Part shown: piece by piece, positions 1-53,527 of the stretch
Numbering within the stretch: the first letter of the stretch is position 1
Layout of the letters: each line of letters starts with the position of its first letter
Origin: Candidatus Desulfopertinax cowenii
GTDB taxonomy: Bacteria; Bacillota; Desulfotomaculia; Desulfotomaculales; Desulforudaceae
Length of the DNA stretch: 64,000 nucleotides
Assembly (NCBI GenBank): GCA_001899445.1
Contig: MPOA01000001.1
Location: forward strand, 148,564-212,563
Reading direction: 5' to 3'
The notes under the pieces: model-generated
The model's database searches: none
Told to the model about the DNA's origin: nothing
Seen by the model: only the letters and a program-made list of their open reading frames with translations
Translations under genes and position numbers: made by a program

Positions 1-972
1 GCCCAGGTCTTGAATCATTTGCCGGAGATGGAAGACGCCAAATTACTGGTCGGCATTGAAACCTCCGACGATGCGGGTGTTTACCTGATCAATGAAGAAA
101 CAGCGCTTTTGCATACCGTCGATTTCTTTACCCCGATCGTGGATGACCCGCGGCGCTTTGGTCAGATCGCGGCCGCGAACGCCCTGAGCGACATCTACGC
201 CATGGGCGGCCAGCCATTGACGGCAATGAACATCATCTGCTACCCCACCAGGGAGGGAAACCTGGAAGTCCTGGCCCAGATCCTGATGGGCGGCGCCGAA
301 AAAGTCAAGGAAGCCGGGGCGCTGATCGTGGGCGGGCACAGTGTGGAGGACAAGGAACCTAAGTACGGCCTGGCGGTCACCGGAGTTGTCGCCCCCGACC
401 AGCTCGTGCGCAACAGCACCGCCCGCCCGGGAGACCGACTGGTGCTCACCAAGCCTCTGGGTACCGGCATCGTTACTTCGGCGGTGAAAGCGAAAATGGT
501 ACCGCCCGGACTCGAAGAGGCGGTGAGTGCCCAGATGGCGGCCCTAAACGACCGGGCGGCGCGGGCAATGCGGGAGGCCGGGCCGTCGGCTTGCACCGAC
601 GTCACCGGGTTCGGCCTGTTAGGACACGCCATGGAAATGGCCCGGGGCAGCGGGGTCGGACTCATCTTCGAGGCCGCCGCACTACCGCTTATCGAACGCG
701 CCCCGGAGTATGCCTCGCTGGGACTGATTCCCCGCGGGGCCCATGCCAACCGCTGCTTTATCGGGGATGACGTATCATTTGAAGCAGGCGTACCCCTGGC
801 CATCCAGGACATCATGTTCGACCCGCAGACCTCGGGCGGCCTGTTGATCGCCGTTCCGGAGGTCCGACTGCAAACCCTGATGGACAAGCTGGCGGAATAC
901 GGGGTGCGGGAAGCCCGGGTGATCGGCCGCATCACCGACGAAATCCCCGCTGGGAAAATCCTGGTCCGCTAA
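1..972 (+). CDS. selD: Selenide, water dikinase (selenophosphate synthetase), 5'-truncated by the window edge
   Basis: The reading frame is open from base 1. It is collinear with E. coli SelD from about residue 40 (LLVG.ET.DDA.VY, TVDFFTPIVDDP..FG.IAA.NA.SDI.AMGG, GGHS, TDVTGFGLLGH, DPQTSGGLL). The N-terminal Cys/Sec active-site loop lies outside the window. Confidence 0.92.
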   Translation, partial: AQVLNHLPEMEDAKLLVGIETSDDAGVYLINEETALLHTVDFFTPIVDDPRRFGQIAAANALSDIYAMGGQPLTAMNIICYPTREGNLEVLAQILMGGAEKVKEAGALIVGGHSVEDKEPKYGLAVTGVVAPDQLVRNSTARPGDRLVLTKPLGTGIVTSAVKAKMVPPGLEEAVSAQMAALNDRAARAMREAGPSACTDVTGFGLLGHAMEMARGSGVGLIFEAAALPLIERAPEYASLGLIPRGAHANRCFIGDDVSFEAGVPLAIQDIMFDPQTSGGLLIAVPEVRLQTLMDKLAEYGVREARVIGRITDEIPAGKILVR

Positions 973-9240: not shown

Positions 9241-11082
9241 TTAGTGCACCCGGGTGAACCCGGCCCGCGCGCGCAGGTAGCGCCCCCGGGGAGTGTAGGC
9301 GGTGTGCAGGAGCTTCTTTGCCTTCTCGCTCAGCGGGTGGCCCAGGTACTCCTCATACAGCTTGCGCACCGCGGGGTTTTCGTGCGCCCGCCGCAGTTCC
9401 CGCTTGAGATCGATGCTGTAAAGCGCCTCAGCGCGCCTGCGCCGGCGTTCCCACGGGGAATCCTTGCGGCGGCCAGGACCCAAGATCGGCTGGCCCCCGC
9501 CACCGATACAGCCCCCGGGACAGCCCATGATCTCCAGAAAATGGTACTTCGCCCCGGCCTTAATCCGTTCCAGCAGGCGGCGAGCGTTCCGGGTGCCGTG
9601 GGCAACCGCCAGCTTCAACGTCCGGCCCCGCAGATGCACCTCAGCCTCTCGCACCCCGTTCAGCCCGCGGACCGCCTTGAAGTCCACCCGAGCCATCTCC
9701 TCCCCTTCGGTCAGGGCGTAGGCAGTGCGGATGGCGGCTTCCATAACCCCCCCGGTGGCCGCGAAGATCACGCCCGCCCCGGTAGCGATGCCCAGCGGGG
9801 CGTCAAACTCCCCCTCTTCCAACGCATCCCAGTCCAGCCCCGCCTGCCGGATCATCCGGGCCAGCTCCCGGGTGGTCAGCACAAAGTCGATGTCCCTTCG
9901 GCCCGCCTCGGACACCAGTTCCGGGCGAGCGGCCTCGAATTTTTTAGCCGTGCAGGGCATTATCGCCACCGTCACCAGCTGGTCTGGATCAAGACCTTCT
10001 TTTTCCGCGTAGTAGCTCTTGACCAGGGCGCCGAGCATCTCCTGCGGGGATTTGCAGGTGGAGAGGTTGTCCAGAAATTCGGGGTAGAAGTGTTCGCAGA
10101 ACTTGACCCAGCCCGGACTGCACGAGGAGATCAGGGGTAGTTCCCCTTTTCCCCCCAGGCGTTCCAGCAATTCGTGCGCTTCCTCCATAACCGTCAGGTC
10201 AGCCGCGAACTCGGTGGAAAACACGGTGTCGAACCCGATCGCCCGCAGGGCCGAAACCAGTTTGCCCGTAACCACTGTCCCGGCCGGCATCCCGAACTCT
10301 TCGCCCAGGGTGACCTGGATGGCTGGCGCCGTCTGGACCACCACCTGTTTCCCCGGGTCGTCGATCGCCTTCCAGACCTCGTGGATGTACTCGCGTTCGG
10401 TGAGTGCCCCGGTGGGGCAGGTCAGCAGGCACTGGCCACAGCTGATGCAAGCGGCCGCCTCCAGGTCCCCTTCAAAGGCAGGCCCGATCACCATCTCAAA
10501 ACCCCGGCCCGTCGCGGTCAGTGCATCCACGCCCTGAACCTTGCGGCACACTTCGACGCAGCGGCGACACTTGATGCACTTTTCCGGGTCGCGCACCATA
10601 AACGGATTGTTTTCGAGCATCTGGCGCCGGCGGCGCCGGTTGAAAAACTTTAAACGGTGCAACCCGACCCGGGCCGCCATCTGGCGCAGTTCACAGGTTT
10701 CCGCCCGGGGGCAGACCGGACAATCGGTGTGGTGCTCGGTAAGCAGTAGTTCAACCACCCGCCGACGCGTTCGCCGCACCCGCGGGGTATTGGTGCGCAC
10801 CACCATCCCTTCCCGCACCGGGGTGACACAGGCCGCCGGGAGAGTGCGCATCCCTTTCACCTCCACCACGCAGACCCGGCAGCAGCCGGGCTCGCTGATC
10901 CCCTTCAGGTAGCAGAGGGTGGGGACGTCGATGCCGTGGTCCCGGGCGGCGTCCACGATATTGGTACCCTCCTCAGCCGTCACCTCCCGGCCGTCAATGG
11001 TGAGCCGCACCCGGCGTTGATCCACTGATCTTACCGGATCGTGGAGCCGGGCATCCCTGTTTTCAGTCGTCTCCTGCTGCAC
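9241..11082 (-). CDS. hydA: [FeFe]-hydrogenase, monomeric multi-cluster type (2Fe-2S + 4Fe-4S domains + H-cluster domain)
   Basis: Has an N-terminal 2Fe-2S ferredoxin fold (CYL..GCCRVC) and two CxxCxxCxxxCP motifs. H-cluster motifs L2 (MPCTAKKFE) and L3 (EIMGCPGGCIGGGGQP) are canonical. L1 is deviant: SSCSPGW instead of TSCCPxW. The start is set at GTG 11082, with GGAGG 6 nt upstream. Confidence 0.85.
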   Translation of the reverse strand: MQQETTENRDARLHDPVRSVDQRRVRLTIDGREVTAEEGTNIVDAARDHGIDVPTLCYLKGISEPGCCRVCVVEVKGMRTLPAACVTPVREGMVVRTNTPRVRRTRRRVVELLLTEHHTDCPVCPRAETCELRQMAARVGLHRLKFFNRRRRRQMLENNPFMVRDPEKCIKCRRCVEVCRKVQGVDALTATGRGFEMVIGPAFEGDLEAAACISCGQCLLTCPTGALTEREYIHEVWKAIDDPGKQVVVQTAPAIQVTLGEEFGMPAGTVVTGKLVSALRAIGFDTVFSTEFAADLTVMEEAHELLERLGGKGELPLISSCSPGWVKFCEHFYPEFLDNLSTCKSPQEMLGALVKSYYAEKEGLDPDQLVTVAIMPCTAKKFEAARPELVSEAGRRDIDFVLTTRELARMIRQAGLDWDALEEGEFDAPLGIATGAGVIFAATGGVMEAAIRTAYALTEGEEMARVDFKAVRGLNGVREAEVHLRGRTLKLAVAHGTRNARRLLERIKAGAKYHFLEIMGCPGGCIGGGGQPILGPGRRKDSPWERRRRRAEALYSIDLKRELRRAHENPAVRKLYEEYLGHPLSEKAKKLLHTAYTPRGRYLRARAGFTRVH

Positions 11083-11155
11083 GGGGCACCTCCGCTTAAT
11101 GGACCAGAGTTGCTTCCTGGGCCTAGTCTTTGTCCTAGTGGCGGGTTTAATACCG

Positions 11156-11902
11156 TCACCGATGGTAAACTCCAATCCCCACCGCCCGGGCGAGGGCGGT
11201 TATCTCCTCCGGGCTCGGCCGCGGCCGCCGGTTATAGGCCGGATCCAGGCAGGTGCCCGGACGGAAGGGTTGCAGGCGAAACCGCACCGTGTCCTGCAAC
11301 TCCGGAAATTCGGCCAGCATTTCTTCCAGCAGCTCCTCGGTATGCAGCCCGGGAACCACCGTGGTTCGCACTTCCCCTCGCTCCCGCGCCAGGACCAGGC
11401 TGATGGTTTCCCGCACCTTTTCCGGTTCCGGGCACCCCAGCTTCGGGTAGTGCCGCAGCAGTATCTTGTAGTCCACTGCCACGTAGTCCACCAACCCCGC
11501 ATCCAGCAGGTGCGCCACCATGTCCGGCCTGGTGCCGTTGGTATCCAGTTTGACCAGGTATTCCATGGCCTTCACCCGCCACAGGAAAGCGGGCAACCCG
11601 GGCCACAGGGTCGGTTCACCACCGGTGGCCACCAGCCCGTCCAGGAAGCCCCGGCGCTGTGCCAAAAACTCGAGTACCCCTTCCACCGGTACCGTCTCCC
11701 CAAACAGGTTTGGATCCACGAGGTTCGGATTCTGGCACCACGGACAACGGAGGTTGCAGCCGCGGGTAAACACCACCGCGGCCACTTTCCCCGGCCAGTC
11801 CACTAGCGATAGTTTCAATAGGCCCGCTATCCCCGCTCTTGTTTTATCCACTCCGGCCCCACTCCATCCAGCACTAATAATGAAACATTCTCCGGTCGGC
11901 AT
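11156..11902 (-). CDS. nrdG: Anaerobic ribonucleoside-triphosphate reductase activating protein (radical SAM)
   Basis: Contains the CNLRCPWCQNP radical-SAM cluster motif and lies immediately downstream of nrdD. The true start may be the internal GTG near 11851, because the listed ATG overlaps the nrdD end. Confidence 0.88.
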   Translation of the reverse strand: MPTGECFIISAGWSGAGVDKTRAGIAGLLKLSLVDWPGKVAAVVFTRGCNLRCPWCQNPNLVDPNLFGETVPVEGVLEFLAQRRGFLDGLVATGGEPTLWPGLPAFLWRVKAMEYLVKLDTNGTRPDMVAHLLDAGLVDYVAVDYKILLRHYPKLGCPEPEKVRETISLVLARERGEVRTTVVPGLHTEELLEEMLAEFPELQDTVRFRLQPFRPGTCLDPAYNRRPRPSPEEITALARAVGIGVYHR

Positions 11903-14009
11903 ACTCGGCCTTCTTACCTTCGTTCCACTGGCTCACCGGCCGGTAGTAGCCGACGATGCGGGAGTAGACTTCGCACGCCTCCCCGCACCTGGGGCAGTAC
12001 CGGTGTTCCCCACTGATGTACCCGTCGCTCGCGCACACCGAGTAAGTGGGCGTGAGGGAAACATAGGGTACCCGGAACCTCCCGAGCACCCGGTTTACCA
12101 GGGCGGCGCTGCTCTCAGGATCAGGCAGCGCTTCACCCAGGAAAATGTGCGCCACCGTGCCCCCAGTGTACAGTTCCTGGAGTGGTTCCTGGTGCGTCAT
12201 CATTTCGAACACGTCGTCGGTGTGTGACACCGGAAGCTGGGTCGAATTAGTGTAGTACGGGGCAGCCCCTTTCTTCCAGGCCTCCTCGTTGGCCACCCGG
12301 ATGCCGGGGTATTTCATCTTGTCGAGCCGGGCCAACCGGTGTGAAGCACCCTCCGCCGGTGTCGCCTCCAGGTTGTACAGGTTACCGGTCCGTTCCTGCA
12401 CCCCGGCGATGAACTCCCGCAAGAAACCTAGAATCCGCAGGGCGAACTGCCGGCCGGCGGCCGTATCGATCCCTTCCCCGTACAGGTTAAGGGCCGCCTC
12501 GTTGCCGCCCACCAGTCCGATGGTCGAAAAATGGTTCGACCAGTAACGGCCCGAGCGCTGTTTGACACTCTGCAGATACCGCCGCGAGTAAGGATACAGG
12601 CCGGAAGCGGTTAGCCGCTCCAACACGCGGCGTTTGATTTCCAGGGAGGTGACCGCCAAGGAGGCCAGTTCGGCCAATCGGTCAAAGAACTCGGCCTCGT
12701 CCCGGCCGATATAGGCGAGGCGCGGGAGATTCAGGGTGACCACCCCGATGGATCCGGTAAGCGGGCTGGCCCCGAAAAGACCCCCGCCGCGTTTCAAGAG
12801 GTCGCGGTTGTTAATCCGCAGCCGGCAGCACATACTGCGCACGTCCTCCGGCTTCAGGTCGGAATTGATGAAGTTGGCGAAGTAGGGCGAGCCGTATTTG
12901 CCGGTAACCCGGAAGATTTTTCGGGATACCTCACCGTGCCAGTCAAAGTCGGCCGAAATATTGTAGGTTGGAATTGGAAAAGCGAAGCCCCGGCCGCGCG
13001 CATCCCCTTCCAGCAACACGTCGGCGAACGCCTGATTAATCAGGCTGACTTCTTCCTGGTAGTCCCCGTAGGTGTTGGAACTTGCACTCACCCCGCCCAC
13101 GATCGCCGGCTCGCGCTTCAAAAACCCGGGCACATCGATATCCATGGTGACGTTGGTAAATGGGGTTTGGTAACCAGTACGGGTCGGCACGTTTAGGTTG
13201 AACACGAATTCCTGCAACGCCTGCCGAACCTGAAGGTAGCTCAGGTTGTCCGCCCGCACGAAGGGTGCCAGGAGGGTGTCCACATTTGAGAAAGCCTGCG
13301 CGCCGGCGGCCTCCCCCTGCAGGGTGTAGAGGAAATTCACCATCTGGCCAAGCGCGGACCGGAAGTGCTTCGGCGGCCGCGATTCCACCTGGTTGGCCAC
13401 CCCGCCGAACCCCTCCTCCAGCAACTGCTTCAGGTCCCACCCCACGCAATAGACACTAAGGTAGCCTAAATCATGAATGTGGAAGTCGCCTTCACGGTGG
13501 GCGCGGCGCACTTCCGGCGGGTAAATCCGTTCCAGCCAGAAGTGAGCGGCCGCGGTGTTGGAAAGGTAGTTGTTAAGACCCTGCAGCGAAAAGGCCGAGT
13601 TGGCGTTCTCCGATACCCGCCAATCGGCTTGGTTCAGGTAGGACTCAACCAGGTCACAGCTCACCAGCGATTTCATGTCGCGCATCTGCCGGTGCTGCTC
13701 CCGGTACAGGATGTAGGCCTTGGCCGTTCGGTAGTAGCCCAGCTCCATCAGGGCAGTTTCCACCAGGTCCTGGACTTCCTCGACGGTGGGCAGCCTTTTC
13801 CCCCCGCGTTGCAGGGCCTCCAGCACCCGCTGCGTGACTGCCGGCGCCGCCTCCTCGGCCCACTTGGCCTCCCCCGTGGCCCGAAACGCCTTGAGAATCG
13901 CGTTGGTGATCCGGATGTCTTCGAAAGGTACCGTACGGCCGTCACGCTTTTGAATCGAATCAAAGATCAAGGGCGAACATCTCCTTGGCGCAAAGTAAAA
14001 GCCCGGCAT
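11874..14009 (-). CDS. nrdD: Anaerobic ribonucleoside-triphosphate reductase (class III)
   Basis: Has an N-terminal ATP-cone (IQKRDGRTVPF), a C-terminal Zn-ribbon (CPRCGEAC) and a glycyl-radical tail (SRIVGYYRPV). An alternative TTG start at 13970 has AAGGAG upstream. Confidence 0.93.
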   Translation of the reverse strand: MPGFYFAPRRCSPLIFDSIQKRDGRTVPFEDIRITNAILKAFRATGEAKWAEEAAPAVTQRVLEALQRGGKRLPTVEEVQDLVETALMELGYYRTAKAYILYREQHRQMRDMKSLVSCDLVESYLNQADWRVSENANSAFSLQGLNNYLSNTAAAHFWLERIYPPEVRRAHREGDFHIHDLGYLSVYCVGWDLKQLLEEGFGGVANQVESRPPKHFRSALGQMVNFLYTLQGEAAGAQAFSNVDTLLAPFVRADNLSYLQVRQALQEFVFNLNVPTRTGYQTPFTNVTMDIDVPGFLKREPAIVGGVSASSNTYGDYQEEVSLINQAFADVLLEGDARGRGFAFPIPTYNISADFDWHGEVSRKIFRVTGKYGSPYFANFINSDLKPEDVRSMCCRLRINNRDLLKRGGGLFGASPLTGSIGVVTLNLPRLAYIGRDEAEFFDRLAELASLAVTSLEIKRRVLERLTASGLYPYSRRYLQSVKQRSGRYWSNHFSTIGLVGGNEAALNLYGEGIDTAAGRQFALRILGFLREFIAGVQERTGNLYNLEATPAEGASHRLARLDKMKYPGIRVANEEAWKKGAAPYYTNSTQLPVSHTDDVFEMMTHQEPLQELYTGGTVAHIFLGEALPDPESSAALVNRVLGRFRVPYVSLTPTYSVCASDGYISGEHRYCPRCGEACEVYSRIVGYYRPVSQWNEGKKAEYADRRMFHY

Positions 14010-17425: not shown

Positions 17426-18580
17426 TTAAGATTTAAGGCTTTCCGTTGGATACCGGGCCCGGGTCAACAGCAAAGCCCCCGCCAAGGCGGTAAGCGGAAC
17501 ACACAGAATCATCCCCATGCTCCCCGCTAGAGCCCGCACCACCTCGGTGGCGATCAGGTCAAGGTTGATAATTTTAAGGAGTGGTGTGTCATAGGCCATG
17601 AAAACCAGGAGCAACGGGATGGCCGCGCCGGTATAGGCCAGAATCAGCGTGTTGGCCATGGTGCCCATGATGTCACGGCCAACGTTCATTCCAGCGCGCA
17701 ACAGGCCCACCGGACCGATGGCCGGATTGGCCTTTTTCACCTCTTCCATGGCCGAAGCCACCGACATCCCGACGTCCATCACCGCCCCCAGCGCGCCAAT
17801 TATAATCCCGGCGAACAATAGTCCTCGAAAATCAAAATCGGTTTCCTGGGGAATATAAAGCAAGGCAGCGGCTTCTTCGCTGCCAAATCCGGTTAACTGG
17901 GCACCCGTTCCGACCAGGTAGGCGATCACACCGGCCACAATCACCCCGCCGACCGTGCCGATGGTGGCGGCCAGCGTCTTAACCCCGAGGCTACCGATAA
18001 CCACGAAGGTCACGACCACGACCACGGCCGAAACCAGCACGGCCAGCACGATGGGGCTGTAACCCTGCAGCATCAGCGGCAACAGGATTCCAGCAATGGC
18101 CAGTCCGGTGATTCCCAGGGTGACCACGGCCTTAACGCCCTTGAGGCCGCCGATGACCACCAGGGCCAGGACGAAGCCGCCGGCCAGGTAAACCAGGTGC
18201 TGATCCCGGGCATAGTCGGACAGGTAAGCATTGACGAGTCTGCCATCTGCCACTTCGGCCCAGACCAGGACGTTGTCCCCCGGCTCGAGGTGCAGGTCGT
18301 AGGCCGGGTGCCCGGTGTGGGCATCCTCCAATTCGAGGATCTGCCCCTTGAACGGTCCCCCGGTCACCTCGACGGTGAGCAGCTGACGTTCCATGGCGAA
18401 ACCGGGCGCTAGGGCCTCCTCGGCTTCGACTCTTTCCACGGTCAACACCCGGGCCCGGAACACCTCCTCGTCCAACTCTCCTTCCCCGGCCCGGGCTTCG
18501 CCCACCACTGCCAACCCAAACGCGGTGACAACCGTGACGAGGATGATGAGCCACATCACGCCCTTCTTGTTCACCGACAT
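17426..18580 (-). CDS. YibE/F-family membrane protein
   Basis: Has an N-terminal signal anchor plus an extracytoplasmic domain, then about 7 TM segments with the GAVMDVGMSVASAMEE motif typical of the YibE/F family. Confidence 0.75.
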   Translation of the reverse strand: MSVNKKGVMWLIILVTVVTAFGLAVVGEARAGEGELDEEVFRARVLTVERVEAEEALAPGFAMERQLLTVEVTGGPFKGQILELEDAHTGHPAYDLHLEPGDNVLVWAEVADGRLVNAYLSDYARDQHLVYLAGGFVLALVVIGGLKGVKAVVTLGITGLAIAGILLPLMLQGYSPIVLAVLVSAVVVVVTFVVIGSLGVKTLAATIGTVGGVIVAGVIAYLVGTGAQLTGFGSEEAAALLYIPQETDFDFRGLLFAGIIIGALGAVMDVGMSVASAMEEVKKANPAIGPVGLLRAGMNVGRDIMGTMANTLILAYTGAAIPLLLVFMAYDTPLLKIINLDLIATEVVRALAGSMGMILCVPLTALAGALLLTRARYPTESLKS

Positions 18581-28911: not shown

Positions 28912-29694
28912 TTACTCCACTTTTTGGGGATTTTTAAGACTGCTTTCCAGATTTAAGCGGCAGAAATTGTAGGGCGGCCACGGACCGGAATAGCGGAATT
29001 CCAGCACTTCGGCATACGGCACAAACAACTGGTTTGCCAACCGGTCGAAATCCTCTTCCTTTTCCTTCGGCACCAGGAAGGCGGCATTGAACACCATGCG
29101 TTCCGTAAGAATGTCATTTAGGACCGACTCGGCCGCCATCTGGTTCAGGGGTTCGTAAAGCAGTTTGATGTATTCCCGGCGCTTGCGGTCAGCCGCTTCG
29201 GCCATCAGCTGTCCCAGTTGCATGGCTTCATCGTAGGAGACCGGACCGGACTTCTCGTTCAGCGCCGCCTTGGCCTGTCGAACCCGGCTATCGGCGCCCT
29301 CTAGGTCCGTCTCAAACGCTTCCCGGCGCCAGAGAACCTTGAGCCCCAGTTCAACCTTGTCCCGAATGCGCTCCAGGGTGTTTTTCAGCAACTCATAATT
29401 CCCAACCAGAACGGTTTCGATGGGCACCCCCGGGACGGCTACGATGCCGAAGCGCACGGGGATCACCGGATGGCGCCGCATGACGAACGAGATCACCCGT
29501 TCGTGCGCCAGGGCCAGCTCCCGGGTCGGCTCCAACTCAGGCTGCGGCAAGTCACTTACCACCGCGGCCAGATCACGATACGGCACCGCCCGCACCGGGG
29601 CCCGGTACAAGCCGGTCGTTTCAAGCCGTACCGGGGCGGAGATCTCGATCACCCCGTAAAGGTAAACGCCGCGGGGTTCCTCTCCGGTGGTCAA
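28912..29694 (-). CDS. GvpL/GvpF-family gas-vesicle-related protein (orphan)
   Basis: The N-terminal GVYLYGVI...YRDLAAVVS pattern, the central coiled region and the C-terminal FRYSGPWPPYNF are characteristic of GvpL/F. There is no gvpA or gvpN in the window. Confidence 0.75.
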   Translation of the reverse strand: MTTGEEPRGVYLYGVIEISAPVRLETTGLYRAPVRAVPYRDLAAVVSDLPQPELEPTRELALAHERVISFVMRRHPVIPVRFGIVAVPGVPIETVLVGNYELLKNTLERIRDKVELGLKVLWRREAFETDLEGADSRVRQAKAALNEKSGPVSYDEAMQLGQLMAEAADRKRREYIKLLYEPLNQMAAESVLNDILTERMVFNAAFLVPKEKEEDFDRLANQLFVPYAEVLEFRYSGPWPPYNFCRLNLESSLKNPQKVE

Positions 29695-45461: not shown

Positions 45462-46712
45462 TTAATCATACAAATGCTGGCGCGTCAGGGGCAGGTCGTT
45501 GTTCAGCCCCTTGGAAAAGAGAATCTGGTGGATGTCGAGGCCGCTGACCCTAAACGAGGCGGCGCAGGAATGGAGATAAAGCCTCCACATCCGGGCGAAC
45601 CGCTCGCCGAACTGTTCCACCACCCGCGTGTAATTCCGGTCGTAGTTTTCAGCCCACCGTTCCAGGGTCATGGCGTAGTGCAAGCGCAGGCTTTCCACGT
45701 CCAGCACGTGAAAATCGTACTCGGGCAACAGCCAAATCGTTTCCCGGAGCGAGGGAATATAACCCCCGGGGAAAATGTACTTTTCGATCCACGGGTTTAC
45801 CGGGTCCTCGGTCATATGGGTGATGGTGTGCAGCAAGGAGAGGCCGCCGGGCTTCAGCATCTTCGCCACCGCCGCCATGTACACCGGGAGATTGGCCCGC
45901 CCCACGTGTTCAAACATCCCGACGCTGACCACCCGGTCAAAGGTGCGCCCACTGTCAGCCAGGGTACGGTAATCCATCAATTCGGCCTCGACCTGGCCGG
46001 TCAGGCCCAGGTCAGCGATGCGCTTCCTGGTTTCGGCCACCTGTTGCTCGCTGAGGGTGATCCCCAACGCCCGCACTCCATGCTGCTGGGCCGCCCGGAC
46101 GATCAGCCAGCCCCAACCGCTTCCGATGTCCAGCAGCGTGTGGCCGGGTTTAAGCTGCAGTTTCCTCAACGTATGGTCGACTTTCTGTAACTGGGCCTGG
46201 TGGAGGCTGTCGTTAGGTGATTTGAAATAGGCACATGAGTAACTCATGGTTTCGTCAAGCCAGAGGCTGTAAAACTCGTTGCCGATATCGTAGTGGTACT
46301 GCACGTCCTTCTTTTGCCGCGCCGGGGAATTGCGCCAGGGCAGCATCTGCGCCGCTTTCAGGGCAAACAGCGCCTTCCTGGACTCGCCCAGGGCATTGCG
46401 GTATTCGATCGCCGTCCGCACCAGTTCCCTGAGGTCACCCTCCACCTCGACCCGGCCTTCCATGTAGGCCTCGCCAAATCCTAGTTCCGGTTCCTTCAAT
46501 ACCCGCGGCAATACGGCCGGATCCCGGAGAATAAGCTTGAACCTGGGTGTTCCCCGCCCAAACCGGTCCGTTGTGCCGTCCCAGTACTGCACCGAAAAGC
46601 CCTTCCCCTGAACGCGCTCGAACAGTTTTCGAACCAGAGTCTTCTGCAAAATTGTCACCCCCCTGGATAAACGGGGCCGGGCCCAAAAGCCCCGGGATAT
46701 GATAACCCGCAA
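45462..46712 (-). CDS. cfa: Cyclopropane-fatty-acyl-phospholipid synthase family methyltransferase
   Basis: Has the SAM-binding motif LLDIGSGWG and the Cfa family C-terminal region. The true start is probably downstream of 46712, because a 10-bp-stem hairpin (46702-46730) overlaps the listed start. Confidence 0.85.
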   Translation of the reverse strand: MRVIISRGFWARPRLSRGVTILQKTLVRKLFERVQGKGFSVQYWDGTTDRFGRGTPRFKLILRDPAVLPRVLKEPELGFGEAYMEGRVEVEGDLRELVRTAIEYRNALGESRKALFALKAAQMLPWRNSPARQKKDVQYHYDIGNEFYSLWLDETMSYSCAYFKSPNDSLHQAQLQKVDHTLRKLQLKPGHTLLDIGSGWGWLIVRAAQQHGVRALGITLSEQQVAETRKRIADLGLTGQVEAELMDYRTLADSGRTFDRVVSVGMFEHVGRANLPVYMAAVAKMLKPGGLSLLHTITHMTEDPVNPWIEKYIFPGGYIPSLRETIWLLPEYDFHVLDVESLRLHYAMTLERWAENYDRNYTRVVEQFGERFARMWRLYLHSCAASFRVSGLDIHQILFSKGLNNDLPLTRQHLYD

Positions 46713-47065: not shown

Positions 47066-48262
47066 CTATCCCTGCACGGTGGCCGGCGTGGTCGCGGGCT
47101 TCTCCGCGGTCTCCACGTCGGACACACCCTCTAGCACCCGGAAGTTTTCCACGAAGAACAGGATGACCAACAGCGCGCCGAAGATCAGGCCGAAGAAACC
47201 CACCCACTCCATCCAGGTCGGGAAGTAGGTCTGCGTGTAGGCCGGTGCCATCCCGGTGAAGATCACGTTCGTCCGGTTCAGGATCACGCCCACACCGGTC
47301 AGGATCGAAGCGGTAACGATCCCGCCGACCGAGTTCCGGATGGACGGGATAAGGAACATCACCAGCGGCACAAGCAGGAATACCACGTGCTCCAGCAGGA
47401 ACATGTTGCCCTGCAGGGTACCGTTGAAGACGTAATCCCAGGCACCGCGCGCCGTCAGGTCCCAAACCTTGAGCGCCACGTAAAACACCATCAGGGCAGC
47501 GCCCACCAGACACAGGCTGGCCAGCGACGGCATCAGGTCACTGAAGTTCTTGCCGTAGATCCGGCATAGCGCCCAGCAGGAGAAAGTCACCACCGCCGGA
47601 CCGACCATCAGCGAGGAGATCATGAAGAACCACGGAATCCACAGCGACCACCAGGCCGGGTACAAGTGGGTGGTGGCGATAAACAGCCCGCCCAGCGAAG
47701 CCTGGTGTAGGGTCGGGAGCATGATCCCGAAGCAGATCAGCACCGGCATCGCCTTATCCAGTGCCTTATAGATTAACGGCGCGTCGATCCGCTCAAAGGC
47801 GATGTGCCCGAACTCCAGGATCTGAATGGTCCAGTACAGGGTCATACACCAGAGCACTTCAAACAGGATCGAGGTGTAACCCCAGTAGACGAACGGACGC
47901 CAGAAGTTGTAGTACACGGTAATATCGAATAACAGTCCGACCATCGCAATGCTGTAACCCAAAAGCGAGACAACCATGGCTACCCGGACCACCGGGTAAA
48001 AACGCTTAATGTGCAGCACGTGCGCCAGAAACACGGTCCCATAACCACAGCCGGCGATCGCGACCGCCGGGAACACCAGATACTTCCATAGACCCCACGT
48101 CCACTGGTCGTTCAGGTTGGTCACCGGTCCCAGGCCGAAGGCGAACCGGTATCCGGCCACCGCCAGGAACAAGACCATAAAGGCCAGCATAGCCCAGCGC
48201 AGCGGGGTCAGCCGGAATCCGAATCTGGAAGTGTACCTCTCGTCGTACGCCACTTTTCGCAC
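47066..48262 (-). CDS. NrfD/HybB-like integral membrane subunit (quinone-interacting)
   Basis: A 398-aa protein with about 10 TM segments of the NrfD/PsrC family type, immediately downstream of the HybA-like ferredoxin. Confidence 0.8.
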   Translation of the reverse strand: MRKVAYDERYTSRFGFRLTPLRWAMLAFMVLFLAVAGYRFAFGLGPVTNLNDQWTWGLWKYLVFPAVAIAGCGYGTVFLAHVLHIKRFYPVVRVAMVVSLLGYSIAMVGLLFDITVYYNFWRPFVYWGYTSILFEVLWCMTLYWTIQILEFGHIAFERIDAPLIYKALDKAMPVLICFGIMLPTLHQASLGGLFIATTHLYPAWWSLWIPWFFMISSLMVGPAVVTFSCWALCRIYGKNFSDLMPSLASLCLVGAALMVFYVALKVWDLTARGAWDYVFNGTLQGNMFLLEHVVFLLVPLVMFLIPSIRNSVGGIVTASILTGVGVILNRTNVIFTGMAPAYTQTYFPTWMEWVGFFGLIFGALLVILFFVENFRVLEGVSDVETAEKPATTPATVQG

Positions 48263-48291: not shown

Positions 48292-49128
48292 TTAGTGACC
48301 GTCCTCATCGCCGCTGCGCTTCTTGGTATACACGTAAAGCGCCGCAAAGGCAACCGGCAGGCTCACCGCCAGGAACGGCGCCTTGGACATGTACTTCCAA
48401 GTATACTTGGGAATACTCTTGTCAATGATGTCCTCACTGAAACCGAGTTCCTCGAAAGGCACGCTCGAGATATACAAAACAGAAGTGCCGCCGACTTCTT
48501 TCTCCCCGAAGATGTGATCCACGTACTGGTCCGGATTCTTGTTGATCCGGTCCCGGGCCTTTGCCAACAATCCGCCGCGCTTGCCGAACTCCAGGGCCTT
48601 GGTCGGGCAGGCCGCCACACAAGCCGGCTGCTGCCCCTCTTTTACCCGCTCGTAACACATGGGGCACTTGCTTATCCGGGAGAATACCTCTTCCCACTCA
48701 ACCTGGATCGTAAGGAACGGGCAGGCCAGTTGGCAGTACCGGCAGCCAACACAGATCCCCGGATCCATATACACCACCGGGCCTTCCGGCGTCTTCCGGT
48801 AGGCGTGCACGAAACAGGCCTCGAAGCAGATCGGCTCCACGCAGTGCATACAGGCCCGGCGCACGTGCCGCCACTTCGTTTCGCCGTCCTTGCCTTCAGC
48901 AAGGTAGGCATTCATCACCAGGTAGTCGTAGGGGGTCAGGTGCGGCGTATTCCAATTCCCGGCCTCCCCGCGCGGCCGATGCGGCTGGTTCAGGGGCACG
49001 TAAGGCAGGTTGTGCGCCTGCTTGCAGGCCATCTGGCACGCCCGGCAGCCGATACACCGGTTCACATCGAACAGTATTCCGAACAACTCACTGGGATCTC
49101 GCTTGGCGGTCCGTTCAAGTAATTCCAT
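48292..49128 (-). CDS. 4Fe-4S ferredoxin-type electron-transfer subunit (HybA-like) with C-terminal TM anchor
   Basis: Has several CxxCxxCxxxC(P) motifs (CIGCRACQMAC, CMHCVEPIC, CVGCRYCQLACP, CPMC...CVAACP) and a hydrophobic C-terminal helix. Confidence 0.85.
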   Translation of the reverse strand: MELLERTAKRDPSELFGILFDVNRCIGCRACQMACKQAHNLPYVPLNQPHRPRGEAGNWNTPHLTPYDYLVMNAYLAEGKDGETKWRHVRRACMHCVEPICFEACFVHAYRKTPEGPVVYMDPGICVGCRYCQLACPFLTIQVEWEEVFSRISKCPMCYERVKEGQQPACVAACPTKALEFGKRGGLLAKARDRINKNPDQYVDHIFGEKEVGGTSVLYISSVPFEELGFSEDIIDKSIPKYTWKYMSKAPFLAVSLPVAFAALYVYTKKRSGDEDGH

Positions 49129-49211: not shown

Positions 49212-50660
49212 TCAGGAAATCACAAAGTCAGCAATGCGGGAACCACGGCGGACCTCGATCACGTGTACGGCGCAGGCGATGCACGGGTCGAAAGCCCGCA
49301 CGATCCGCACCAGTTCGATCGGGTTGTCCGGGTCGGCCACCTGGACACCGATCAGCGCCTCTTCCAGCGGACCCCTGACTCCCTTGTCGTCCCGCGGGCC
49401 GATGTTCCAGGTGCTGGGCACCACGGCCTGGTAGTTCTTGATTACGTGGTCCTCAATTTCGATCCAGTGCCCCAGGGCACCACGCGGCGCCTCGGTCAGT
49501 CCGAATCCCCGAGCTTGACGCGGCACGTCGTAGGCTTCAAAGGCCGGTTCGCCGGGAACCAGTTCCTGGAGCCAGTCCAGCATGGCGTGGGCGGTCACCG
49601 TCGTTTCCACGGCCCGAGCAAAGTGCCGGCCCATCACCGAAAAGGCCTTGTCCCCAAGCCCGGTCACCTGTGGGTTCTTGCCGACCCACATCCTAGCCAG
49701 CGCCCCGACCTCGCAGGGATGATCCTGGTACCTGGGCGCCTTGATCCAGGAGTAAGCGCCGCGCTTGTCCACCTCGGGTACGGTTTCGCCCTCGAAGGGG
49801 TGCTTCCCGGTGCCCGACTTATACCACGAATAGGTCACGTGCTCCTTGATCTGGTCGGCGTCCACCGGCACGTACCGGCCGTCGACGTAAGCCCCCCGGG
49901 TGAAAAACTGGTTCGCTCCGTTGGGATCTTTTTGGTCAGTTAACGGATAAGCACCGTAAGACAACAGGTTCTTGCAGCCGGTCCCGATCTCGAACCAATC
50001 CTCGTAAGCGCCGGCCACCGCTAAAACGTCGGGCACGTACACGTTGTCGATGAAGGAGATCAACTCGCGGAGCTTACTCTCGTAGGCTTTGATCAGTTCC
50101 TCCGTGACCTCGGTGGTCACCCCGCCCGGCAGGAACACCGTGGTGTGCGGTAACCGGCCGCCGAATACGGCCCCCATTTCGTGTGCCTTGCGCCGCATTC
50201 CCAGCGCTTGAATGTAGTGTTCTACGACCACCGCCGTCACGTCCGGCGGGAGACGGTAATCGCCCTCGTACCGCGGTACAAACGGCGCGGTTTCGGGTCC
50301 TTTGACGTAGTCCAGGGCGGCCAAGTGGTAAAAGTGCAGAATGTGAGACTGGATCAGGTTCGCGCCTTGGATCAGGTTTCTGATGATCCGGGCGTTTCTT
50401 GGCGGCGTAATCCCGAAAGCATCTTCCAAGCATAGCACCGAACTGATGCCGTGGGAGATCGGTCAGACACCGCAGATGCGCTGCGTGATATGTTGCGCAT
50501 CGCGCGGGTCGCGCCCCTTCAGGATAATCTCCAGACCGCGGAACAATGCCCCGGTGGTTTTTGCATCGCGCACCCGGTTCCCATCCAGCTCAACCTTCAC
50601 CTTGAGGTGGCCCTCGATCCTGGTTACCGGATCGACGATTATGGTACGTGCGCTACTCAC
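49212..50660 (-). CDS. [NiFe]-hydrogenase large subunit with one in-frame UGA (50463-50465) at the second Cys of the N-terminal RxCGxC motif; candidate selenoprotein (alternatively a pseudogene)
   Basis: Two ORFs in the same frame are separated by one TGA. Read through, the sequence is ...[22 protein letters not shown]..., which is collinear with RxCGVCxxxH. The C-terminal DPCIACAVH plus a cleavable extension are present. GGAGGTGAGGAG precedes the GTG start at 50660. Confidence 0.75.
50418..50450 (-). promoter_or_regulatory. Candidate bacterial SECIS-like hairpin downstream of the UGA
   Basis: On the minus strand, GGCAUC-(21 nt with internal UUC/GAA and GC/GC pairs)-GAUGCU begins 12 nt after the UGA. 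The apical loop lies about 30 nt from the UGA. Confidence 0.35.
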
Positions 50661-50678: not shown

Positions 50679-51629
50679 TTATCCTTTGTTTCCGGTCACC
50701 GGCATACCGCCGTAAAGCGGCGAGCAGCCGTCCGGGAAGGTCGCCTCCGAGCAGGCCTGGCACGGCGCTCCGGCCGCGATACACCAGTTGGTGTTGTTGT
50801 TCCAACCCCGCTTGGGACAATCCGACATGGCAATAAAACCTTTGCAGCCCAGGTACTGCAGGCAACCCTCGTCGCCGATCCGCTTGGCAAACCGGCCCGC
50901 CTCAAAGTCTGGGCGGCGCGGACAGTTGTCGTGAATGGGAATCTCGTAGAACATCTTGGGCCGCAGGTAACGATCTAGGGCGGGGATCTCATTATAGGTG
51001 AGCACATAAGTCAGGGTGCCCAGGAAGTGATCTGGATGCATCGGACAATTGGAAATGTTAATCACGTTGTGTGCTCGCCGCCAGGGCTGATCGTTCAGCA
51101 CCGCATCCACGCCCAACACCCCGGTCGGGTTCGGGGCGGCGCCGGGGATACCGCCATATGCCGCGCAGGAACCAGCGGCGATAACCGCCTTCGCCCGCTT
51201 GCCGAGACTCAGGAGCGCCTCGTGCATGGTGAGCTCCTTGTGGCCGATCTCACCGATGAAGCAGTACTTACCCTTGTCGTTCACAGGAATACCGCCTTCG
51301 ACCACCAGGAAGAACTCACCGGCGAACCGGTCGGCGACCTCTTCCAGGGTGTGCATTCCGAGGTGTCCGGAGGCGGCCATTATATTGGGATGATAGCGCA
51401 GGCTGATTACGTCCAGGAGCACCTTTTCAATGGATGGATCCACGGTGTTCAAGAGCGAAACCGAGCACCCGGTGCAGCTTGCGCCCTGAATCCACAGCAC
51501 GGGGACCTTATCCTCGACGGCTTTGGCCAGCGCGTGGGTAATCTGGGGTCCCAGCAATGACATCAGGCTTAAGCCCGCGGCGGACATCCCACACAACTTT
51601 ACGAATTCCCGCCGGGTAAGCTTGCGCAC
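50679..51629 (-). CDS. [NiFe]-hydrogenase small subunit with Tat signal peptide
   Basis: Has the twin-arginine signal MRKLTRREFVKLCGMSAAG and the proximal-cluster motifs (CTGCSVS, GSCA..GG). The GTG start has GGGAGGGAG upstream. Confidence 0.92.
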   Translation of the reverse strand: MRKLTRREFVKLCGMSAAGLSLMSLLGPQITHALAKAVEDKVPVLWIQGASCTGCSVSLLNTVDPSIEKVLLDVISLRYHPNIMAASGHLGMHTLEEVADRFAGEFFLVVEGGIPVNDKGKYCFIGEIGHKELTMHEALLSLGKRAKAVIAAGSCAAYGGIPGAAPNPTGVLGVDAVLNDQPWRRAHNVINISNCPMHPDHFLGTLTYVLTYNEIPALDRYLRPKMFYEIPIHDNCPRRPDFEAGRFAKRIGDEGCLQYLGCKGFIAMSDCPKRGWNNNTNWCIAAGAPCQACSEATFPDGCSPLYGGMPVTGNKG

Positions 51630-51751
51630 CTAAACTCCCTCCCTACACTCTAAGATTTTCCGAACCATAACGGAGACAACTAACAGAGATCAAGCCGCAG
51701 AATCGGGAAAAGTGCCGCTTTCACACGGCGCCCACTCCGGGCGCCGGAGCC

Positions 51752-51854
51752 CAACCCCCGGATCCGCAACCAAGGGACTGCCCCGCCGCCAAGACCCTCC
51801 ACCGCGCACCGTAAATTGGCAGGGGAAATCCTTTAGTTGCGGATCGGGGGGTTG
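51752..51854 (-). promoter_or_regulatory. 19-bp inverted repeat (18/19 complementary) forming a long stem-loop in the hydrogenase operon leader
   Basis: CAACCCCCGGATCCGCAAC (51752-51770) pairs with GTTGCGGATCGGGGGGTTG (51836-51854), enclosing a 65-nt loop. Confidence 0.6.
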
Positions 51855-51947
51855 AGCGTTAGCCAAAGTCCCTTTTCTCACCTCCTCTATTGTGACTAAT
51901 GGGACAAGATCATAATAAATTTTATGATGGGGAGTTAATTTAATATT

Positions 51948-51976
51948 ATTTATCATGATAGCATAAGGCCTGTCAA
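51948..51976 (-). promoter_or_regulatory. Sigma-A-type promoter candidate for the hydrogenase operon
   Basis: On the minus strand, TTGACA (51971-51976) is followed by a 17-bp spacer and ATAAAT (51948-51953). This would give a leader of about 310 nt. Confidence 0.5.
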
Positions 51977-52158
51977 CATAGTAGGGCTCTTCTAAAATAA
52001 CTTCGTAAAATATATTTAGATGATTTAGATGATCTTTCCTAGAAACAAAGGTAAATGTAAGCCGGTCAGCAAAGCAGTAGCCTTGATAATAAAGTTGTAT
52101 TGACAGAAGACAAATGGCAACCTCCGAACTGTTTGAAGTTTAAGGTAAAGAGAGAAAA

Positions 52159-52647
52159 TCAGGGCAAGCAAAGTCTTTTTTTTGCCTCCTCAAAGGCCAG
52201 TTCAACGGCTTCTTCCGGGGTGCCGGCCGCCAGTATCCCGGCTTCCAGGCCCCTGCCAGAAATCAACCGCCAGGTATCCAGACCGACAACCGGCTTTTCC
52301 ATTTTTAGCGCCAAACCGATCTCCGAAAGAGTGCCGTAGCCGCCGTCGATCGCAATCAGGACGTCGCAGGCGCAGGCGATCACCGCGTTACGGGCGTCCC
52401 CCAGGCCGGTGGCCAGGGCCACTGACAGGTACGGGCTGCCTTGCCGCCGATCTCTGCCGGGTAACACGCCCACCACCAGTCCACCTTCCCGCCGGGCACC
52501 GCGGGCCGCACCCTCCATTACGCCCCCCCGGCCCCCGCAGACTAAAATCCCGCCGCGCCGGGCGATTTCCATCCCGACCTCCTCGGCCCGTTTCTCCACC
52601 GTCGCAGAGCACGAAGCCGCGCCAATCACCCCGATGTAAAACACGCT
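52159..52647 (-). CDS. TIGR00725/LOG-family (Rossmann-fold nucleotide-binding) protein
   Basis: Contains the VCGGRGGVMEGAARGA and GGYGTLSE motifs. The start is set at the internal Met (MSVFYIGVIGA...). Confidence 0.7.
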   Translation of the reverse strand, partial: SVFYIGVIGAASCSATVEKRAEEVGMEIARRGGILVCGGRGGVMEGAARGARREGGLVVGVLPGRDRRQGSPYLSVALATGLGDARNAVIACACDVLIAIDGGYGTLSEIGLALKMEKPVVGLDTWRLISGRGLEAGILAAGTPEEAVELAFEEAKKRLCLP

Positions 52648-52714
52648 CATACCCCTCTTCGGAACCATAATCCCGGCACCTTACCGCCGGGCCGTCCAGT
52701 AGCGGGCCGCTCAT

Positions 52715-52748: not shown

Positions 52749-53393
52749 TTACAGCGCCGAATGCAGCTCCTTAAACACCAGATTAAAGGTCAGGATCTCC
52801 AGCTTCACCGCCAGGTCCACGTTCCGAACCACCACGTCGTTCGGAACTTCAACTACCACCGGACCGAAAGTAAGTAACGCCCGAATCCCGCACTCGACCA
52901 GCTGATTGGCGGTATCCTGTACCGCACTCAATGGAACGGCGATCACCCCAATCTTCACGTCGAACTCGCGAATCACCTCGGGCAGCCGCTCCAACGACAG
53001 AACCTCCAAATCCTGAACCCGCTTACCGATTTTGGTCAGGTCGTTGTCAAAGATCCCCACGATGTTGAAGCCGCGGTCCTTGAAGCCCCGGTAAGTACAA
53101 AGGGCCGTCCCCAGATTGCCAGCCCCGACCAATACCATCGGCCACGCCCGGGTAAGCCCCAGGATTTTCAAAATATAATGAATCAAATCCTTGACGTTGT
53201 ACCCGACCCCGCGCGTGCCAAACTCGCCGAAATAAGCCAGATCCTTGCGCACCTGCGCCGGACTGACGCCCACGCCCTTTGCGATTTCGCTGGACGAAAC
53301 CGTGTTGATCCCCCGACGTTCCAACCGCTCCAAAAAACGGGAGTAAATCGACAGGCGGGTGACCGTAGCCTCCGGAATCCTTAAAGCTTTCAT
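52749..53393 (-). CDS. rex: Redox-sensing transcriptional repressor Rex
   Basis: Has the N-terminal [16 protein letters not shown] and [16 protein letters not shown] motifs plus the Rossmann motif GAGNLG. Confidence 0.92.
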
Positions 53394-53527
53394 CCCTTGA
53401 GCCCCCCCCTGTGTCACTGTTGGTTGTCAGTTGCCATGAATAATTCCGAAAAGTTAAACAACTTCATTTGAATCATTATACAGTGGCCTTTTGAAGGGGT
53501 CAATTATTTTTGTTAAAAATATCACTT

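Follow-up and report, generated by a model that had tools for sequence, protein, structure and literature searches.

Background

To our knowledge, selenium is a terminal ligand of nickel in all [NiFeSe] hydrogenases that have been characterised biochemically or structurally, and the ideas on what selenium does in these enzymes (oxygen tolerance, a bias towards H2 production, nickel insertion) rest on that terminal position. A natural enzyme with selenium in the bridge between Ni and Fe would test whether the effects of selenium depend on its position; we know of no natural enzyme of this kind, recognised by selenocysteine (Sec) in an N-terminal C-x-x-U motif (CXXU), that has been characterised. 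In this study we analysed a stretch of 64,000 nucleotides (nt) of Candidatus Desulfopertinax cowenii (GenBank assembly GCA_001899445.1, contig MPOA01000001.1, positions 148,564 to 212,563 of the forward strand; hereafter the window, in which all positions are counted unless another contig is named). It holds the gene for the large subunit of a [NiFe] hydrogenase of Group 1 with an in-frame UGA, and the comparative analysis of sequences indicates that this is very probably one intact selenoprotein gene, in which UGA specifies Sec at a bridging ligand and the C-terminal pair of ligands is Cys.

The concept as such has been published before. According to PMC13582414, Baltazar et al. 2011 reported N-terminal CXXU motifs, with a Sec predicted to bridge Ni and Fe, from two sequences of Group 1 and one of Group 3. 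PMC13582414 itself (2026), which dealt with Group 4 only, described 47 Sec-type enzymes, 27 of them of the CXXU type, from nine phyla that do not include the Bacillota; the evidence for the CXXU type consisted of UGA read-through, a stem-loop downstream of the UGA and a G in the loop that is lost in Cys-type relatives by synonymous or conservative changes. Evans et al. 2021 (PMC8020662) referred to the natural cases of bridging Sec as 'purported examples'. An earlier note on the window, which had proposed Sec at the bridging position, added the hedge that its author was not aware of a described precedent; in view of the CXXU cases in PMC13582414, including those cited there to Baltazar et al. 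2011, this hedge has to be given up. The identity of the two Group 1 examples of Baltazar et al. 2011 was not found in the literature that we searched; should they lie elsewhere, the Bacillota group presented here is an undescribed one. In either case the enzyme is a well-supported further case of the uncharacterised CXXU kind.

Results and discussion

The large-subunit gene and its in-frame UGA

The large-subunit gene (49212..50660, minus strand; PF00374) is a frame of 482 codons when read through the UGA, and the TGA at 50465..50463 on the minus strand is the single internal stop in that frame. In the list of open reading frames (ORFs) the gene appears as two pieces that share one frame, 65 aa at 50463..50660 and 408 aa at 49212..50438; translation agrees with the earlier note in that only one TGA and eight sense codons separate the two. 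Both pieces match PF00374, the N-terminal one over profile positions 1-25 (E 1e-9) and the C-terminal one over profile positions 124-508 (E 9e-130). The start codon, GTG at 50660, is preceded by a strong Shine-Dalgarno sequence (GGAGGTGAGGAG), and inspection of the sequence upstream of the internal GTG at 50438 revealed none, as the note had stated.

The UGA codon (50463..50465, minus strand) stands in the context RICGV[UGA], where it stands in for the second of the two Cys in the N-terminal RxCGxC motif and would be read as Sec66. This assignment, likewise made before, follows from the fact that the QRICGVCP region can be aligned without gaps to the [NiFeSe] large subunit of D. vulgaris Hildenborough. 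The second N-terminal Cys is known to bridge Ni and Fe (Cys68 in D. gigas, C79 in E. coli Hyd-1). Such a bridging role is consistent with PMC13582414 and PMC8020662. At the other end of the gene, direct translation gives the motif DPCIACAVH (49263..49289, minus strand) with TGC for both Cys, the first of these codons lying at 49281..49283, followed by an extension of 16 residues (49215..49262, minus strand) that is presumed to be the substrate of a maturation endopeptidase; motif and extension are thus present, as had been claimed, and the motif is intact.

The assignment to Group 1 is supported by the combination of an N-terminal RxCGxC-type motif and a C-terminal DPCxxCxxH motif, by matches to Group 1 structures in the PDB with E-values down to 1e-148, and by the adjoining genes, which encode a small subunit with a twin-arginine translocation (Tat) signal and iron-sulphur (FeS) domains as well as electron-transfer and membrane proteins. 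The feature that defines the N-terminal CXXU type, an in-frame UGA at the second Cys of CxxC, is present in the window and has been kept in 10 further genes.

Conservation of the UGA codon

The closest proteins in the database are themselves truncated products of about 405-411 aa (P0001-P0005 with 79-100% identity, and P0072, P0108, P0112 and P0120 with 65-68%), and the next tier of matches consists of full-length proteins with Cys at the column. For seven truncated clusters the DNA was examined (P0001, P0002, P0003, P0005, P0108, P0120 and L015, the last being equal to P0121), and all seven proved to be split by a TGA in the same manner: 63-67 aa of N-terminal sequence come first, then the TGA at the same codon, and the remainder follows in frame. 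A scan of GTDB, with one genome per species, yielded 72 related loci with the motif. The codon was TGA in four of these, found in Firmicutes bacterium UBA3572, UBA911, Desulforudis sp. SURF_60 and a Guaymas Peptococcaceae metagenome-assembled genome (MAG), and TGC or TGT in the other 68. Three further TGA loci were obtained by an exact-pattern scan of JGI metagenomes. Altogether the window and L001-L012, L015, L079, L086 and L087 have TGA at this codon, and these carriers come from independent assemblies (JGI, Logan and NCBI MAGs). They represent 11 distinct Sec-type genes (the window gene and 10 others) with a pairwise amino-acid identity of 59-90% (mean 70%). No named cultured carrier was found among the close homologues, and a search seeded with the copy of Desulforudis sp. 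SURF_60 gave only further truncated clusters. The comparison of orthologues that the earlier note had called for thus shows a column that is TGA in one group of Bacillota as against TGC or TGT in 68 other loci and in two Cys forms nested within that group.

The gene is under strong purifying selection on both sides of the UGA. Relative to the window copy, the ratio of non-synonymous to synonymous substitution rates (dN/dS) was 0.05-0.12 upstream and 0.06-0.24 downstream of the UGA, with a proportion of synonymous differences (pS) of 0.36-0.80, synonymous sites being close to saturation. From the UGA to the internal GTG there are eight codons (PISHGISS), which can be aligned to the homologues and show no non-synonymous difference at all (pN = 0). 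Further stops or frameshifts were found in none of the Sec-type copies, and all Sec-type relatives have the C-terminal motif in the form DPC[IL][AG]CA[VI]H, with Cys retained.

An invariant block and a candidate SECIS hairpin

Directly downstream of the UGA we found a block of 21 nt (CACGGCAUCAGUUCGGUGCUA; 50433..50453, minus strand, +13..+33 counted from the U of the UGA) that is invariant in the 11 Sec-type genes and contains the minihelix of a candidate selenocysteine insertion sequence (SECIS). In the alignment of the 11 genes this run, CACGGCATCAGTTCGGTGCTA (+13..+33), is the longest invariant nucleotide run in a gene of ~1450 nt, the next longest measuring 6 nt. The corresponding peptide, HGISSVL, marks the unique minimum among 435 windows of seven codons (summed pairwise differences of 0.0, the median being 6.25), and synonymous positions vary freely in the codons that flank the block.

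The proposed SECIS hairpin (50434..50450, minus strand; +16..+32) reads GGCAUC-AGUUC-GGUGCU. Its stem, GGCAUC/GGUGCU, has 6 bp including two G-U pairs, and its loop of 5 nt, AGUUC, carries G23-U24 (counted from the U of the UGA, presumably in agreement with the fdhF numbering), the spacing between the UGA and the apical loop being 18 nt. Folded alone, the 21-nt block has an energy of -6.6 kcal/mol, and in four of five Sec-type contexts the minimum free energy (MFE) structure includes the hairpin. According to PMC13582414, bacterial SECIS elements have a G at the apical loop's first or second position; with a G at the second position, a spacing of 18 nt and a location within ~50 nt of the UGA, the hairpin fits the consensus quoted there and agrees with the stem-loop described for the CXXU type. 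A search for such an element had been recommended in the earlier note, and a conserved hairpin is indeed present 3' of the UGA.

Natural relatives with a Cys codon

In a neighbour-joining tree, two genes with a Cys codon at the position of the UGA fall within the Sec group, namely L088 (L088:3001-4455; protein P0019, TGT) and L089 (L089:3001-4434; protein P0017, TGC); the tree is distance-based and carries no support values, so that near-monophyly of the Sec group with two nested Cys forms is provisional. L088 encodes a peptide identical to that of the Sec types, with TGT in place of the UGA and three synonymous changes in the block, and in L089 the TGC is accompanied by six changes in the block, including the loss of G23-U24. 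The energy of the hairpin is -1.6 kcal/mol in L088 and -1.1 kcal/mol in L089, compared with the -6.6 kcal/mol of the Sec type. Judged by these features, both genes look like reversions from Sec to Cys. Since both relax the block, L088 by synonymous changes only, the invariance of the nucleotides follows the UGA rather than the protein.

An effect in the reverse direction can be recognised in the protein. Only three residues, Ile72, Ser73 and His287, are invariant in the Sec types and yet rare in 168 Cys types, and two of them, Ile72 and Ser73, fall inside the 21-nt block. The codon of Ser73 (AGU) supplies the G-U of the loop, at a position where 158 of the 168 Cys-type homologues have Ala; here the RNA shapes the protein, because the Ser73 codon provides G23-U24 where Cys types mostly have Ala.

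Selenophosphate synthetase and the use of TGA in this genome

The window also contains selD, encoding selenophosphate synthetase (1..972, plus strand; TIGR00476, 353.9 bits against a cut-off of 125 for ORF 10..972), but the gene is cut at the edge of the window. That selD is present in the window, as claimed before, is thus correct, with the restriction that this copy lacks its N-terminus and that the stronger evidence for a Sec-type SelD lies just outside. The missing N-terminus is supplied by L084, a contig that matches the window with 100% identity along 5000 nt; in that part (L084:11677-11760, minus strand, ~100 nt beyond window position 1) an in-frame TGA was found in the active site, GGG[U]AAKIG. 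The TGA is followed by a hairpin of 8 bp, GGGCCGGA-GGU-UCUGGCCC, with GGU as the loop, which starts at nt 16 and thus has the same offset as the hairpin of the hydrogenase gene. Gene callers start selD at a downstream TTG, which results in a truncated product of 320 aa. On this sequence evidence SelD is a selenoprotein as well.

Many ordinary genes in the window, the hydrogenase gene included, end with TGA, so that this codon has not been reassigned throughout the genome. A scan of the window for other genes interrupted by TGA gave no second convincing selenoprotein, the other flags being ordinary gene boundaries, and no tRNA genes were found in the window.

Probable selenocysteine insertion and alternative explanations

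A number of observations weigh against Sec insertion at this UGA. No selA or selB was found among the scanned ORFs, and no gene for tRNA-Sec, in the window (by ARAGORN, a motif regular expression and NCBIfam profiles) or in L084, to which the search was confined. The hairpin is short and of only moderate stability, and neither the 86-nt nor the 41-nt stretch after the UGA folds better than shuffled sequence (z 0.74 and -0.25, respectively); thermodynamic stability was therefore dropped as evidence for a SECIS, and comparative constraint was used instead. In the sequence context of the window itself the MFE structure is an alternative fold (fold B, with the loop UCGGU), which we rejected as the SECIS, as it needs pairs to UAUGC, absent in L006 and L009 (AAAU/AAAC), and has no G in the first two positions of the loop. 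RNAalifold proposes a third structure, also rejected, which is long-range, consists mostly of columns that are fixed by the conserved peptide LDDAF, has no compensatory changes and breaks the invariant block. For the proposed hairpin compensatory changes can give no support either, because its stem is invariant. Finally, no match to Rfam was obtained, neither for the whole window at the gathering threshold nor for 50380..50500 at E <= 10.

Set against these points are the conservation of the TGA, the selection on both sides of it, the invariant block, the nested Cys-codon controls and the Sec-type selD, which make the evidence unusually clean, and together they strongly bear out the central proposal of the earlier note, Sec at the bridging Cys with a pair of Cys at the C-terminus. 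In the mechanism that we propose, SelB with Sec-tRNA(Sec) would bind the +16..+32 hairpin with the UGA placed in the A site of the ribosome, and Sec would be put in at residue 66 to give the motif R-I-C-G-V-U. Fe(CN)2CO and Ni would then be inserted with the help of the Hyp proteins, after which the C-terminal extension would be cut off behind the His. The resulting active site would have Cys63 as a terminal ligand, Sec66 as a bridging ligand and the Cys pair of DPCIACAVH as a terminal and a bridging ligand, so that Ni and Fe would be bridged by one selenolate and one thiolate, next to two terminal thiolates. The large subunit would be exported by the Tat route together with the small subunit, and electrons from H2 would pass from the clusters of the small subunit to a HybA-like FeS protein and further to an NrfD-like membrane subunit, which would make the enzyme a membrane-anchored, uptake-type Group 1 hydrogenase.

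Among the alternatives, the one that survives best, improbable as we consider it, uses the same SECIS/SelB route but inserts Cys at the UGA (by a tRNA(ReC)-type tRNA or by Cys-tRNA(Sec)), either constitutively or at selenium scarcity, which would lead to an all-Cys enzyme. Cys is evidently functional at this position, as it is found there in the 68 loci and in the nested L088 and L089. A Sec-type selD, however, is kept in the same genome, which is sensible only if selenophosphate, and hence Sec, is made, and a costly UGA with its SECIS has been retained over ~40% protein divergence, although a one-base change to TGC or TGT, of the kind seen in L088 and L089, would suffice.

We regard it as less probable still that the gene is truly split, with a 65-aa peptide and a separate 408-aa protein, translated from the GTG at 50438, assembling into one enzyme in the manner of the VhuU peptide of Methanococcus voltae. 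Such a split is suggested by the two ORFs that are called in every assembly and by the in-frame GTG eight codons downstream. However, this GTG has no Shine-Dalgarno sequence, the intervening PISHGISS has been conserved as a part of the protein (pN = 0, alignable to the homologues), and in a split enzyme the bridging ligand would be absent altogether. Moreover, the invariance of the hairpin block relaxes once the UGA is replaced by a Cys codon, which a reinitiation signal would not predict. That the TGA is a nonsense mutation in a pseudogene, or stems from faulty assembly or sequencing, has a negligible probability; reads pointing to an assembly error or a strain-specific nonsense mutation had been named in the earlier note as something that would undo its proposal. 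TGA is, to be sure, one substitution away from TGC and TGT, and most homologues have Cys. The same codon nevertheless occurs in 11 or more distinct sequences whose samples and assemblers are independent, dN/dS lies far below 1 upstream as well as downstream of the UGA while synonymous sites are close to saturation, and no copy has another stop or frameshift.

Implications of probable selenium at the bridging position

With Sec at the bridging position as the preferred reading, we tentatively suggest, with somewhat less than even confidence, that bridging selenium arose independently within the [NiFeSe] clade and is evolutionarily stable there, being kept over ~40% protein divergence in Bacillota of the deep subsurface and of sediments, with an occasional reversion to Cys. 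If this is true, a bridging selenolate would, in the scaffold native to it, bring an advantage to catalysis or maturation on which selection can act and which was not revealed by the artificial C79U variant of E. coli Hyd-1 (see below), and the Sec type and the nested Cys type P0019 would form a natural matched pair for testing selenium at the bridge. The enzyme seems a good candidate for heterologous expression because it falls in the same structural clade as the [NiFeSe] enzymes, has a conserved SECIS and has close natural relatives of the Cys type.

There is also a consequence for annotation. In annotations these genes are systematically broken up into two fragments (65 aa and ~405 aa), by which an uptake hydrogenase would remain hidden in metabolic reconstructions of subsurface Bacillota, and the same problem affects selD of these genomes.

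The operon and its surroundings

The gene for the small subunit (50679..51629, minus strand; PF01058 and PF14720) precedes the large-subunit gene and encodes a protein with the twin-arginine signal LTRREFVKL. In the region of the medial cluster it has Cys in the NWC position, as in the aligned [NiFeSe] small subunit, and its best match in the PDB is such a subunit (2wpn_A, E 1e-79). On the other side follow the genes for a HybA-like electron-transfer subunit with multiple [4Fe-4S] clusters (48292..49128, minus strand; PF13247 Fer4_11 and related families) and for an NrfD/HybB-like integral membrane subunit (47066..48262, minus strand; PF03916), the presumed anchor on the quinone side. The family profiles thus confirm that the flanking genes are intact, as the earlier note had it. 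The synteny with the HybA-like gene is kept in L001-L006 and L010, and that of the NrfD-like gene after the FeS gene in L001-L004. The HybA-like protein (48292-49128, minus strand) begins with MELLERTAKRDPSELFGILF, without an obvious twin-arginine signal; in this it differs from E. coli HybA, which has such a signal. In the operons of L088 and L089, HycI and TatA/TatC are found as neighbours in place of HybA and NrfD.

The end of the operon is not conserved, as the gene after the NrfD-like subunit encodes an FdhE-like protein in a relative with 81% identity (L004:6527-7218) and a cyclopropane-fatty-acid-synthase-like methyltransferase in the window (45462-46712). Upstream of the small-subunit gene lies an intergenic region of 530 nt (51630-52158, in minus-strand sense), which consists of an AT-rich part with a promoter-like TTGACA-N17-ATAAAT and, after it, a GC-rich leader of ~200 nt without a match in Rfam. 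Just upstream of this region we found a gene for an SLOG/LDcluster4 protein (52159-52668) and one for a Rex-type repressor (52749-53417); the synteny of both is found again in L001, L002, L004 and L005, and that of Rex alone in L006. A Rex operator upstream of the operon was considered and rejected, as the one site found, in the AT-rich part (51890-51907), has two mismatches and is not above chance.

Elsewhere in the window we identified a group A6 NADH-dependent [FeFe] hydrogenase (9241-14009, minus strand; NF040763, 847.6 bits), which adjoins NrdD and NrdG (anaerobic ribonucleotide reductase) and whose ORF, as listed, is extended at the N-terminus by ~55 aa, which probably remain untranslated; at least two types of hydrogenase are therefore encoded within 40 kb. 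An ORF at 28912-29694 (minus strand) has a weak match to GvpF/GvpL (gas vesicle), below the curated cut-off, and lies beside TRAP-transporter and chemotaxis genes, otherwise alone. An ORF of 384 aa (17426-18580, minus strand) has a predicted N-terminal membrane or signal segment and gave no match to NCBIfam.

Comparison with known hydrogenases and SECIS elements

The closest solved structures for both subunits are those of the canonical [NiFeSe] hydrogenases of D. vulgaris Hildenborough (HysAB; PDB 2WPN and 5JSH) and Desulfomicrobium baculatum (PDB 1CC1 and 4KL8), which match the large subunit with E-values of 1e-148 to 1e-141 and the small subunit with E-values of 1e-79 to 1e-74; the standard [NiFe] enzymes rank behind them. 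The enzyme shares with them the QSH motif and the NWC motif of the small subunit (NWCI here, aligned with NWCV in D. vulgaris); we take the Ser of QSH to be at the canopy position, and the Cys of NWC presumably replaces a Pro and thereby accounts for a medial [4Fe-4S] cluster. Judged by its sequence, the enzyme belongs to the [NiFeSe] structural clade. The closest structures, those of the [NiFeSe] enzymes, are placed in subgroup 1a by HydDB. A replacement of the canopy Asp by Ser has been described for [NiFeSe] enzymes (PMC8020662). The likeness extends to the Tat signal of the small subunit, the C-terminal extension of the large subunit and one Sec ligand of Ni, here a proposed one, that is encoded by UGA with a SECIS. 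The position of that ligand is different: the canonical enzymes have Sec as a terminal ligand of Ni at the start of the Sec-containing motif DPUxxC near the C-terminus, as its U, whereas here TGC is found there, with DPC in the window gene and in all Sec-type relatives in place of the DPU that defines the canonical type, and Sec would be at the N-terminal bridging position. As a consequence, the SECIS is located close to the 5' end of the gene. There is also a difference in the redox partners, these being HybA-like and NrfD-like membrane subunits, by which the enzyme resembles the Hyb type, instead of the soluble cytochrome c3 of the Desulfovibrio type (PMC8020662).

With the SECIS of the E. 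coli fdhF type the proposed element has in common that the hairpin lies directly 3' of the UGA in the coding sequence and has a G-U in the apical loop. It differs in being shorter (6 bp, two of them G-U), in having no bulged U and in a lower stem that lacks conservation.

In the C79U variant of E. coli Hyd-1, a Group 1 enzyme, Sec has been placed artificially at the equivalent bridging position (PMC8020662). This variant matures and has 13% of the native activity, the best of four Sec variants, with a lower Michaelis constant (KM) for H2, and shows no gain in O2 tolerance or H2 production (PMC8020662). Its Sec was inserted at a UAG by EF-Tu, in the background of an O2-tolerant enzyme, unlike the natural UGA found here; in the absence of such gains the variant does not explain why nature keeps a bridging Sec. 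Natural counterparts predicted from sequence are the CXXU enzymes of Group 4 (PMC13582414), with which the enzyme of the window shares the N-terminal C-x-x-U motif and the kind of evidence for it, and from which it differs in that it belongs to Group 1 and to uncultured Bacillota.

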